From a virus (taxonomy: Duplodnaviria; Heunggongvirae; Uroviricota; Caudoviricetes): DNA of 8,713 nucleotides. The position numbers and the translations under genes were made by a program. The notes under the pieces were generated by a model. It saw only the letters and a list, made by a program, of their open reading frames with translations, made no database searches and had not been told where the DNA came from. Numbering within the stretch: the first letter of the stretch is position 1; each line of letters starts with the position of its first letter. This document shows, piece after piece, positions 87-3,644 of the stretch. Location: IMG/VR virus record IMGVR_UViG_2675903578_000007; one strand, given 5' to 3'.

Positions 87-302
87 ATGTATCAGATGGA
101 AAAAATATCAACAGGCATTGCCTACGGCACCTCCGCCGGCAGTGCCGGCTACTGGTTTTTGCAGTGGTTGGATCAGGTCAGTCCATCACAGTGGGCTGCG
201 ATTGGTGTGCTGGGAAGTCTGCTTCTGGGGCTTCTGACTTATCTGACAAATCTGTATTTCAAAATAAGAGAAGACAAGCGTAAGGCTGCGAGAGGTGAAT
301 AA
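87..302 (+). CDS. S: Class II holin, phage 21 S21-like pinholin (71 aa) with dual-start motif
   Basis: 71-aa [74 protein letters not shown]. It has a Gly/Ala-rich weakly hydrophobic first helix, a second hydrophobic helix and a basic C-terminal tail, near-identical as recalled to phage 21 S21. Met codons at 1 and 4 (87 and 96) form a dual-start motif. Stop TAA at 300-302 overlaps the next ATG (TAATG). Confidence 0.93.
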
Positions 303-1260: not shown

Positions 1261-1611
1261 ATGCCATCACTAATCCCACGTGCCTGCCGTAAGCGTGGAT
1301 GTGCAGGTACAACCACAGACAGTTCGGGTTACTGCGATAAACATCGCGGTGAAGGCTGGGTGCAGCACCAGCGCGGACTGAGCCGCCACCAGCGTGGCTA
1401 TGGCTCAAAATGGACGGTGATTCGTGCCCGTATTCTGAAGCGCGATAAAGGTCTGTGTCAGTTGTGTCTGCGTGTCGGTGTGGTGAGCGAGGCGAAAACC
1501 GTCGACCACATCATCCCGAAAGCGCATGGCGGAACAGACGCAGACAGCAACCTGCAGAGTCTGTGCTGGCCCTGCCATAAAGCGAAAACAGCGCGCGAAC
1601 GAATCCGGTGA
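1261..1611 (+). CDS. HNH endonuclease (phage HNH, zinc-binding; HK97 gp74-like position after the lysis cassette)
   Basis: 116-aa ORF with ATG 1261 preceded by GAGGT. N-terminal Cys cluster CRKRGCAGTTTDSSGYCDKH and an HNH core DHIIPKAHGGTDADSNLQSLCWPCHKAKTARE. Stop TGA 1609-1611. Confidence 0.9.
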   Translation: MPSLIPRACRKRGCAGTTTDSSGYCDKHRGEGWVQHQRGLSRHQRGYGSKWTVIRARILKRDKGLCQLCLRVGVVSEAKTVDHIIPKAHGGTDADSNLQSLCWPCHKAKTARERIR

Positions 1612-1901
1612 TAATTATTCTCACTTGTAGGGAGGGGCGGGGCAAATNNNNNNNNNNNNNNNNNNNNNNNNNNNNNNNNNNNNNNNNNNNNNNNNNNNNN
1701 NNNNNNNNNNNNNNNNNNNNNNNNNNNNNNNNNNNNNNNNNNNNNNNNNNNNNNNNNNNNNNNNNNNNNNNNNNNNNNNNNNNNNNNNNNNNNNNNNNNN
1801 NNNNNNNNNNNNNNNNNNNNNNNNNNNNNNNNNNNNNNNNNNNNNNNNNNNNNNNNNNNNNNNNNNNNNNNNNNNNNNNNNNNNNNNNNNNNNNNNNNNN
1901 N

Positions 1902-2084
1902 AAATGCCCTGTGCCATCCTCAGCCGAAACCTCCAGCGCCTCCGGCATGGGCAATGATGCCACCGTCGAACTCTCTCCAGTTGCTGGACGAAACGTTCTC
2001 GGTATCCGGGACGGAATCATCAGCGACCAGACAGCATTGAGAATGCTTCAGGAGTACATCAGGATCCAATGCCTTGGGGGGTAG
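1902..2084 (+). CDS. Second Rz-family i-spanin (divergent paralog), visible C-terminal part; N-terminus masked
   Basis: Visible translation ...SSAETSSASGMGNDATVELSPVAGRNVLGIRDGIISDQTALRMLQEYIRIQCLGG aligns without gaps to the first Rz C-terminus with 19 of 52 identical residues, including ASG, QEYIR and QC. Stop TAG 2082-2084. A strong SD-like GGGAGGGG at 1630-1637 just before the mask suggests a start near 1650, giving about 145 aa (inference). Confidence 0.7.
   Translation, partial: KCPVPSSAETSSASGMGNDATVELSPVAGRNVLGIRDGIISDQTALRMLQEYIRIQCLGG
1903..2040 (+). CDS. Second Rz1-like o-spanin, embedded in the +1 frame of the second Rz (visible C-terminal part)
   Basis: +1 frame translation NALCHPQPKPPAPPAWAMMPPSNSLQLLDETFSVSGTESSATRQH with stop TGA 2038-2040. 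The proline-rich PPAPPAW.M.PP core matches the [11 protein letters not shown] core of Rz1. Lying wholly inside the Rz-like ORF mirrors the lambda Rz/Rz1 arrangement. Confidence 0.6.
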   Translation, partial: NALCHPQPKPPAPPAWAMMPPSNSLQLLDETFSVSGTESSATRQH

Positions 2085-2172
2085 CGGTAATTTTACTCAT
2101 TATCCTTCAAATCAGATTCTGTTGTCAGAGGAATGGGGGAAGCTGGATTCGCAAGAGCTTTTTATGGGCAGT

Positions 2173-2682
2173 TTAGCTAAAAAAAGGCAACACGAAGCTA
2201 AAACTACCAACATAAAGTGCTGACCAGCTAGCAGCTGAAATCAGACTCACTGTATACACTTTCACTGGATGAAGTTGCAACATTCCTGCCACCAAAGGAG
2301 CAATATAACGCAGCACGGCGATAAAGCGCGAAGTGAAAAGTATTGACACAGAGTTATTTTGCAACTGAAGGCGAACCCGTTCTATTGTATTGGAACGGCT
2401 TGATATTATACATGCAAGTTGAGGGATATGCCCAATTATTATACCAAGATGGTAATTAACGATAGTACCGCACCATGCGCCACTCATGACCGTGATTCCA
2501 GCTTCCCATGGTGAAAGAGTCGTCTTGCTGACTGTAATTACAGTGGCCATCATAATTGATGCTGGTGGCAATATCGCCGAAATGAGTAAAGTGGATTTTG
2601 TGAACGCTATTATAAAAAGAAGCCCCCATAGGCGATATGGATGAAGTACAAAATAGTTCATCAAAGCATTTATCCACTCCAT
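2173..2682 (-). CDS. DedA/YqaA-like (TVP38/SNARE-associated superfamily) inner-membrane protein; prophage moron on the opposite strand
   Basis: 169-aa minus-strand ORF (ATG at 2682, stop at 2173-2175) with an AAGGAAAG ribosome-binding site upstream on the minus strand. It is predicted polytopic, and its segments LLISAILPPASIMMATV, GAWCGTIVNYHLGI and RFIAVLRYIAPLVAGMLQL resemble YqaA/DedA motifs as recalled. The gene and flanks are visibly AT-richer than the neighbouring late genes and read against them. Confidence 0.65.
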   Translation of the reverse strand: MEWINALMNYFVLHPYRLWGLLFIIAFTKSTLLISAILPPASIMMATVITVSKTTLSPWEAGITVMSGAWCGTIVNYHLGIIIGHIPQLACIISSRSNTIERVRLQLQNNSVSILFTSRFIAVLRYIAPLVAGMLQLHPVKVYTVSLISAASWSALYVGSFSFVLPFFS

Positions 2683-2879
2683 CAATGTCTTTCCTTCTGT
2701 GAATTTTTCTTTGCTATTTAACCGTGATACGACTTAATTTAGGCTTAAACACCTTACATTTACAAGGTACTCCTGTGGGGGGCCCTGCCACGGAGCGTCG
2801 CAGGAGTGAGTGATGAGGAAGAATTAAAGCAACCTATTGTGACAGGCAGCGATAACAGTAAATCACAGGAAGCATAATC

Positions 2880-3644
2880 ATGGCAAAACCGGACTGGGAG
2901 GCCATCGAATCGGCATACCGGGCCGGAGTCCTTAGCCTCCGTGATATAGGCGAGAAATACGGCGTTACAGAAGGGGCTATCAGGAAGAGGGCCAAAAAGC
3001 TTGGTTGGGCACGCAGTGGCGGTACGCAGGTTTGCAAAAATGGTACGCAAAAAAGGAAAGTGCGTACCAGCAGAAAGCCTGCCATTACTGGCCTTACACA
3101 AAAAAGTACGCAACTAAAAACAGAATCTACACCGGATACGAAACCGATACGCGGAATGCGTACCGATCCCCCGACTAACCCATTCCAACCCGGTAACCAG
3201 CAGGCATTAAAACACGGTGGTTATGCCCGTCGCCTTCTGCTCAAAGATGAGGTGATAGAGGACGCTAAAGCGTTGACGCTCGAGGACGAATTATTTCGCC
3301 TTCGTGCTAACAACCTTGTCGCTGCAGAGAATATTGGTCGGTGGTTGGTGTCGCTGGAAGATGCTAATGGGGACCAGGAAAGGAAGATGCTGATTGAAAA
3401 TATCAGCGCCGCCGAGAAAGCAATGATGCGCAATACAGTTCGTATTGAGTCCATCGTTGGCACGCTTGCGACGGTAGGAAAAATATTTGCTGATACAGCC
3501 TACCGCAAGGCCGCCACTGATAAGGTGTCTCTGGAGGCTGATCGTCTTCGCCGTGATGCAGGTATTGATGATGGCAATGGAGAGCGTGACCTCAATGACT
3601 TCTACTCTGACATCCAAACCGACGCTGAATCCGGCTTTACGTAG
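2880..3644 (+). CDS. Terminase small subunit (N-terminal HTH DNA-binding domain)
   Basis: 254-aa ORF with ATG 2880 preceded by AGGAAG. N-terminus MAKPDWEAIESAYRAGVLSLRDIGEKYGVTEGAIRKRAKKLGW is the typical HTH start of phage small terminases; it sits directly upstream of the large terminase. Stop TAG 3642-3644. Confidence 0.88.
   Translation: MAKPDWEAIESAYRAGVLSLRDIGEKYGVTEGAIRKRAKKLGWARSGGTQVCKNGTQKRKVRTSRKPAITGLTQKSTQLKTESTPDTKPIRGMRTDPPTNPFQPGNQQALKHGGYARRLLLKDEVIEDAKALTLEDELFRLRANNLVAAENIGRWLVSLEDANGDQERKMLIENISAAEKAMMRNTVRIESIVGTLATVGKIFADTAYRKAATDKVSLEADRLRRDAGIDDGNGERDLNDFYSDIQTDAESGFT

Follow-up and report, generated by a model that had tools for sequence, protein, structure and literature searches.

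Why does a lambdoid prophage of Escherichia coli or Shigella carry, between its lysis and packaging genes, a gene that is read against the late operon and encodes a short membrane protein of the DedA family? The gene lies in an 8,713-nt stretch of a Caudoviricetes genome (IMG/VR record IMGVR_UViG_2675903578_000007; hereafter the window), which represents the late region of such a prophage. We put the probability at roughly 0.55 that the gene is a self-contained moron in the slot that bor occupies in lambda, that it encodes a minimal DedA/YqjA-type inner-membrane protein from a gene family tied to Mg2+ limitation, and that its promoter was captured along with it.

An antisense gene of distinct composition

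A preliminary description of the window, made from its letters alone, had singled out this gene as the only one read against the late operon, AT-rich together with its flanks and equipped with its own ribosome-binding site. All three points hold. The other credible genes of the window are on the plus strand, and the remaining minus-strand open reading frames (ORFs) overlap plus-strand genes. The G+C content (GC) is 0.417 in the ORF (0.386 at third codon positions, GC3), 0.433 in its 5' spacer and 0.420 in its 3' spacer, compared with 0.521 in the remaining window, where the lowest value of any 513-nt segment is 0.458. A Shine-Dalgarno (SD) sequence, GAAGGAAAG, is located 6 nt before an ATG at position 2682, and orthologues have a GGAG-type SD at the matching place. 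This ATG is the start kept in all orthologues; the ORF listing (2173..2685, minus strand, 170 aa) and RefSeq both begin one codon earlier, at a TTG at 2685.

Pairwise ratios of nonsynonymous to synonymous substitution rates (dN/dS) against five orthologues are 0.15-0.25, and by this measure the ORF is under purifying selection. Because of its distinct composition, its SD and these ratios, we consider it a real gene. The interval outlined by eye in the preliminary description, 2173-2760, is nearly equal to the unit that the window has in common with other genomes, 2163-2757. An Rfam scan of 1903-3000 gave no RNA element, and the leader and flank fold no better than shuffled sequences.

A DedA/YqjA-type protein without conserved acidic residues

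The assignment to the DedA superfamily is confirmed by a profile search: residues 42-162 match PF09335 (VTT) with 52.4 bits, above the gathering score of 33.9 (E 9e-14), and all homologues carry this domain. The narrower label of a YqaA-like protein has to be abandoned. A profile of the subfamily gives 58.3 bits with DedA and 57.7 bits with YqjA, the E. coli paralogues in COG0586, compared with 11.4 bits for YdjX and -0.9 for YdjZ (COG0398) and 8.2 bits for YqaA (COG1238). By profile similarity the protein is of the DedA/YqjA type and not of the YqaA type. Like the window protein, E. coli YqaA is a short single-domain member of the superfamily (142 aa), and the resemblance is limited to this shortness; the YqaA type has an acidic first re-entrant hairpin (RH1) without a basic second one (RH2) (PMC10127716), the reverse of what is seen here.

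With YqjA, YghB and DedA of E. coli and UptA of Bacillus subtilis, the protein shares the similarity to the COG0586 profile (~58 bits), the RH2 motif R-F-x-x-x-x-R-x-x-x-P-x-x-A-G, and the proline and serine of RH1. Unlike these proteins of ~220 aa, it comprises only 169 aa. Its alignment to YqjA spans residues ~11-180, so that the last ~40 residues, which form the C-terminal helix, are missing. NCBIfam models for DedA and UptA match weakly, far under their equivalog cut-offs (30.7 versus 236).

The functional core of YqjA and YghB consists of E39 and D51 in RH1, the presumed proton binders, together with R130 and R136 in RH2, the presumed ligands of the lipid phosphate; in YqjA the exchanges D51A and R136A abolish activity, and S52 is required as well (PMC10127716; bioRxiv 10.64898/2026.09.20.752871). 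At the corresponding positions the window protein has K29 (for E39), A41 (for D51), S42 (for S52), R119 (for R130) and R125 (for R136), each of them invariant in the subfamily. Position 29 is a glutamate in 125 of the 132 nearest outgroup representatives, and a lysine occurs there only in the short subfamily; the D51 position is already S, A or T in the nearest outgroup. No acidic residue is conserved across the subfamily, and the window protein has no Asp at all and three Glu, none of which is conserved. Todor et al. (PMC10127716) define COG0586 by an acidic RH1 and two arginines, COG0398 by neither, and COG1238 by an acidic RH1 without the arginines. As aligned here, a core that keeps both arginines and has lost the acids fits none of these definitions. 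The suggestion in the preliminary description that the protein could influence processes dependent on the proton-motive force is weakened by the same pattern and appears doubtful, since both presumed proton binders are replaced and no conserved acid is left.

An AlphaFold2 model built from a 55-sequence alignment (predicted local distance difference test score, pLDDT, 77; predicted template modelling score, pTM, 0.73) places helix-loop-helix units at residues 15-54 and 111-134, with PPAS and RFIAV at their tips; the pLDDT of RH1 is only 52-57. An earlier model from a 17-sequence alignment (pLDDT 58) was discarded. No solved DedA structure was found for comparison: the best PDB match in Foldseek had an E value of 2.2, and a sequence profile search against the PDB returned nothing. 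The best match of a fold search in BFVD was a giant-virus DedA (E 0.43).

The subfamily is represented by 12 of 1.84 billion cluster representatives at E<=1e-30, after which there is a gap to ~86 bits. We found it only in Enterobacterales, where it is phage-borne in Shigella and E. coli and also occurs in Citrobacter, Kosakonia, Enterobacter, Lelliottia, Huaxiibacter, Hafnia, Morganella, Proteus and Arsenophonus, including Arsenophonus endosymbionts with genomes of 0.84-0.93 Mb. Among the loci recovered there was no chromosomal member in E. coli or Shigella. The nearest outgroup includes VTT-PAP2-LssY_C fusions, and VTT-PAP2 fusions have been linked to the recycling of undecaprenyl phosphate (PMC10127716). 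At one Hafnia alvei locus (L110), the short DedA gene is adjoined by genes for a second VTT protein of 190 aa (7035-7607, minus strand) and a Na_Ca_ex cation antiporter (7898-9007, plus strand).

A transferable cassette in the bor slot

The gene appears to move as a unit with its upstream region. Nucleotide likeness of the window to a Citrobacter youngae prophage (82% identity) and to a chromosomal copy in C. meridianamericanus (77%) is limited to 2163-2757, which comprises the ORF, ~72 nt upstream and ~10 nt downstream. In the C. youngae prophage the homologue, 78% identical in sequence, is likewise antisense and directly past the lysis genes. This prophage otherwise differs from the window in its holins, in an endolysin of family GH19 and in a terminase of the lambda GpA type. 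The cassette is also found in chromosomal contexts. It includes a conserved promoter-like unit of a box and a -10 element, which is degraded in the window allele, and no terminator was found in it. No repeats flank its ends.

The slot and orientation are those of lambda bor and of borD in the DLP12 prophage of E. coli K-12, where borD is antisense and directly past an essD-rrrD-Rz lysis cassette that is ~90% identical to that of the window. The two also agree in promoter layout: borD has a PhoP box 12 nt from its -10 element and 70 nt before the ATG, and the box of the DedA family lies at -62 to -71. They differ in product, bor encoding an outer-membrane lipoprotein unrelated to DedA, and in the state of the box, which is perfect in borD and degraded in the window; control of the DedA cassette by PhoP is putative. 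An antisense gene of distinct composition with its own SD, placed past an Rz gene in the bor/borD slot and found in the matching slot in Citrobacter, is what the preliminary description had called a moron. Its overall interpretation survives in part, with the moron and the DedA superfamily retained, the YqaA-like label dropped and the link to the proton-motive force in doubt.

A 796-bp region with the cassette is present in 6 of 5426 complete E. coli genomes, each time in a prophage, with the RefSeq label 'DedA family protein'. An identical protein is encoded on at least 1000 contigs, mostly of S. flexneri, and in 14 IMG/VR contigs. A megablast search of INPHARED with the region gave no match; a tblastn search with the protein gave nine matches only, all below 31% identity and several in doubtful records, and no close homologue. 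A 73%-identical copy on a contig labelled viral (L107) was considered as a third phage background and rejected, since it is really a DinI-DedA islet that abuts a Mu-like prophage on the left and does not belong to it. In C. meridianamericanus-type genomes, a DinI-like gene lies directly upstream of the DedA cassette (L014/L015:7584-7826, L107:4584-4826).

A promoter layout of the PhoP type in orthologues

The preliminary description could not pick out a convincing -35/-10 pair upstream of the gene, and indeed all sigma-70 pairs in this region have fewer than 9 of 12 matches. The pair TTGTAA (2765-2760)-18-TAAATT (2741-2736) reaches 8/12, with a -35 outside the conserved cassette, and offers a weak alternative only. 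The -35 is probably missing because the family promoter depends on an activator and has a direct-repeat box where the -35 would be. An upstream alignment, which drew on loci with otherwise unrelated flanks and proteins 45-78% identical, gave the consensus xGTT(G/T)A-N5-xATT(T/G)A, 12 nt, T(T/C)(A/T)AAT. Of 70 loci, 34 have a box 11-13 nt from a -10 element, placed at -62 to -71 relative to the ATG (chance expectation 0.012 per 130 nt); the distance between box and -10 element is 12 nt in Citrobacter and Enterobacter and 13 nt in the window.

In PhoP architecture I, a direct-orientation box, (T/G)GTTTA-N5-(T/G)GTTTA, lies 12 (11-13) nt 5' of the -10 element and replaces the -35 (PMC3335776). 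The layout of the family promoter appears to be this architecture, as in borD, and we infer from it that the regulator is PhoP. A position weight matrix built from 26 footprinted PhoP activation boxes (PMC3335776), for which leave-one-out scores are 3.9-20.5 bits (median ~13), gives the borD box, used as a positive control, 20.9 bits. At the mgtE-linked Enterobacter loci the proximal box scores 15.9-18.3 bits (background p ~1e-5) and a second box further upstream 15.4-16.4 bits; at Enterobacter cloacae/soli-type loci without mgtE the values are 7.7-10.1 bits. In Citrobacter they are 13.7 bits for the C. youngae prophage, 12.3 bits for C. amalonaticus and 10.8 bits for C. meridianamericanus.

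The mutated box of the window can also be read (2733-2749, minus strand) as TTTAAG-CCTAA-ATTAAG, two xTTAAx hexamers 5 nt apart, which is the pattern of a PmrA/BasR box (PMC10570014). This pattern is absent from the orthologues and lies 11 nt from the -10 element, compared with the ~8 nt implied for pbgP.

Neighbourhoods with Mg2+ channels

A gene for a Mg2+ channel, mgtE or corA, is present within ~4 kb in 41 of 73 loci, in four arrangements that involve two unrelated channel families. In Enterobacter and Lelliottia the DedA gene and an mgtE-like gene diverge, and the spacer between them contains an M-box riboswitch (113-115 bits; gathering score 44) that leads into mgtE. In Arsenophonus, DedA, M-box and mgtE follow in this order on one strand; the M-boxes between the DedA gene and mgtE in these three genera score 107-115 bits. 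In Morganella, corA is ~10 nt away and convergent in 9/9 loci, and in Hafnia mgtE is 2.6 kb from the short DedA gene.

Phenotypes related to Mg2+ have been published for canonical DedA proteins (PMC10846249, PMC10470534). XdfA of Xanthomonas and YqjA/YghB of Klebsiella are linked to Mg2+ homeostasis (PMC10470534, PMC10846249), in parallel to the synteny with mgtE, corA and the M-box seen here. Unlike the short subfamily, they are canonical proteins of 200-250 aa with the conserved glutamate, and the accessible portions of these reports describe neither such synteny nor a PhoP link for them. A literature search found no paper that joins DedA, mgtE and the M-box. Near the C. amalonaticus DedA homologue, at a distance of ~1.5 kb, there is a match to the small RNA rseX (L024:6026-6122, minus strand; 70.9 bits, gathering score 50).

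Features of the window and M-boxes at homologous loci. Positions refer to the window unless a locus is named.
Feature	Position	Strand	Remark
Short DedA-family gene	2173..2682	-	169 aa, VTT domain, membrane protein; ATG 2682-2680, stop 2175-2173
Shine-Dalgarno GAAGGAAAG	2689..2697	-	6 nt 5' of ATG; leader unstructured
Candidate -10, TTAAAT	2716..2721	-	34 orthologous loci have T(T/C)(A/T)AAT here
Direct-repeat box in -35 place	2733..2751	-	TGTTTA (2751-2746), 5 nt, AAATTA (2740-2735), 13 nt, -10; degraded copy of the PhoP-type box of orthologues
Transferable cassette	2163..2757	-	~595 bp; promoter region, ORF and ~10 nt 3'; common to Citrobacter prophage and C. meridianamericanus chromosomal copy
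P21-type holin	87-302	+	context
RrrD-type lysozyme	from 302	+	context
HNH endonuclease	1261-1611	+	context
Rz-like lysis gene	1608..2084	+	partly N-masked; last late-operon gene before insert
Convergent spacer, Rz-like stop to DedA stop	2085..2172		no intrinsic terminator on either strand
Spacer up to terS	2758..2879		specific to host phage; not in Citrobacter copies
Small terminase subunit, terS	2880..3644	+	PHROG/Pfam; first packaging gene past insert
terL, then portal and head genes	past terS	+	context
M-box (ykoK-type)	L030:3672-3841	-	full-length, 5' of 333-aa mgtE-like gene
M-box (ykoK-type)	L053:3668-3837	-	full-length, 5' of 333-aa mgtE-like gene
M-box (ykoK-type)	L055:4792-4961	+	full-length, 5' of 333-aa mgtE-like gene
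M-box (ykoK-type)	L057:4793-4962	+	full-length, 5' of 333-aa mgtE-like gene

Other observations in the window

Between the endolysin and the second Rz-like ORF, the window has an extra block (796-1611) whose junctions are masked by runs of N (792-1041, 1648-1901). It contains an Rz gene similar to rzpD of DLP12 (91% identical at 1042-1196, ending at 1218) and the HNH endonuclease gene, and the window thus has two tandem Rz-type genes with an HNH gene between them. The block is absent from locus L001, the Shigella loci and 14 viral contigs. E. coli phages often carry Rz-HNH blocks (171 genomes). In the two genomes that match the block of the window at 98% or more, it is located in another prophage than the DedA cassette. 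Over its final 90 nt (8624-8713) the window is 100% identical to part of L001, and in L001 this part continues into the beginning of an annotated IS1A; the prophage is apparently interrupted by IS1 just past the gene ending at 8608.

A possible role in the lysogen

Taken together, we propose that a moron of ~595 bp in the bor slot supplies a promoter region, an SD and an inner-membrane protein of 169 aa. The core of this protein would be formed by two re-entrant hairpins that keep the presumed phosphate-binding arginines and the adjacent serine and have no conserved carboxylate. Its substrate could be a membrane lipid with an anionic phosphate head, either undecaprenyl phosphate or a phospholipid, and the protein would handle it without proton coupling through carboxylates. 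The protein itself is probably not a Mg2+ channel, since its conserved core is purely cationic; rather, the lipid it handles may matter when Mg2+ is scarce. Chromosomal members in Enterobacteriaceae would be driven by a promoter with a PhoP-type box 12 nt 5' of the -10 element, and both gene and promoter would have been captured by a phage. Transcription of the gene in the lysogen would run against a late operon that is silent, and its product would add an envelope function to E. coli or Shigella. The make-up of the region, the family to which the protein belongs, its residue pattern, the sharing of the cassette, the synteny and the conserved promoter motif are observed; the regulator, the substrate and the benefit to the lysogen are each putative in this model. 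New among the features described here are the Glu-to-Lys exchange in a core without conserved carboxylates, the PhoP-type promoter architecture and the Mg2+-channel neighbourhoods of the subfamily.

Several observations weigh against the proposed role. The box of the window scores only 3.6-4.9 bits (background p ~4-6e-3). Its first half-site, TGTTTA, is perfect; the low score is due to one extra base and G->A changes, which turned the second half-site into AAATTA, and it is uncertain whether the window allele responds to PhoP. The copies in Morganella, Hafnia, Kosakonia and Arsenophonus lack the box, so the link to PhoP would be specific to certain clades; in Kosakonia the upstream region is a different one, with an extended -10-like element. 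The gene was not identified among the PhoPQ-dependent genes in a microarray study of S. flexneri 301, for which the locus tags could not be mapped and LB medium was used. There is no terminator 3' of the DedA gene. Loci of one genus share descent, which inflates the synteny counts; even so, four arrangements with two unrelated channel families seem hard to ascribe to chance. Canonical flippase activity appears doubtful, because the published COG0586 criteria make the acidic residues essential and YqjA D51A is inactive. Finally, by parsimony the window branch has accumulated 51 substitutions and the C. youngae branch 13, as would be expected if constraint on the window allele were somewhat relaxed.

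The last point bears on whether the gene is now a decaying passenger, a once functional moron that persists as a neutral relic in degraded Shigella and E. coli prophages, where its promoter is inactive and the lysogen gains nothing from it. The fourfold excess of substitutions on the window branch comes with a strong bias (36 GC->AT, 9 AT->GC), which accounts for the extra AT-richness of the window allele (GC 0.42; 0.47-0.53 in orthologues), and 28 of the changes are nonsynonymous and 23 synonymous. Also in favour of a relic are a box that scores far below the 10.8-18.3 bits of orthologues, a cassette found in just those six complete E. coli genomes, and surrounding prophages that are broken by the insertion sequences (IS) IS2, IS911, IS600 and IS1. 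Yet the ORF is intact, the protein occurs unchanged on its many contigs, and all 33 family-invariant residues are unaltered; the SD and the -10 element are kept, pairwise dN/dS is still 0.16-0.23, and the gene is intact in IS-riddled prophages in which terL and neighbouring genes are disrupted. We regard decay as a genuine minority possibility, and the most serious competitor of a functional Mg2+-related moron.

Two further functions have been weighed for a gene in this position. Exclusion or defence genes often fill the moron slot between lysis and terminase genes. An inner-membrane protein that is presumably expressed from the prophage could alter the envelope such that other phages cannot adsorb or inject, and DedA proteins mediate the uptake of some compounds (PMC12119084). 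PADLOC returned no model match for the DedA protein, and its orthologues are ordinary chromosomal genes linked to mgtE or corA rather than to defence islands and kept even in the reduced Arsenophonus genomes, which makes a defence role improbable. The protein could instead act on the DedA proteins of the host: YqjA occurs mostly as a dimer, in which the hairpins form the interface (bioRxiv 10.64898/2026.09.20.752871), and a short form that has the hairpins but neither the acidic residues nor the C-terminal helix might pair with YqjA, YghB or DedA and change or poison their activity without being a transporter itself. A pure modulator, however, seems out of place in the very small Arsenophonus genomes that keep the subfamily, and we consider this role unlikely, if slightly less so than defence.

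Implications for DedA proteins and for Shigella

DedA proteins have recently emerged as translocases of undecaprenyl phosphate and phospholipids that are required for polymyxin resistance and envelope integrity, and it is an open question how they are energised and why there are so many paralogues. The subfamily described here is a natural experiment in this respect: it has kept the arginines and lost the conserved carboxylates, and it could tell whether the acids are needed for transport or only for coupling. Its neighbourhoods with mgtE, corA, the M-box and PhoP-type boxes provide a testable handle on the puzzling Mg2+ phenotypes of DedA proteins. Among bor-slot morons, the cassette is also the second with a promoter architecture suggestive of host stress regulons. 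It is nearly ubiquitous in sequenced S. flexneri, a species in which PhoPQ regulates virulence.

Going further, and speculatively, the proteins with the all-cationic core K29/R119/R125 might constitute an unrecognised DedA class, a translocase of lipid phosphates specific to Mg2+ limitation, co-regulated with Mg2+ channels (as the PhoP boxes and M-box neighbourhoods would suggest), uncoupled from protons and other cations, and spread together with a stress-responsive promoter by temperate phages into S. flexneri. This proposal in its full extent is rather doubtful. If it were true, the cassette would be a conversion factor for survival in host niches that are low in Mg2+ and rich in antimicrobial peptides, as bor is for serum resistance.

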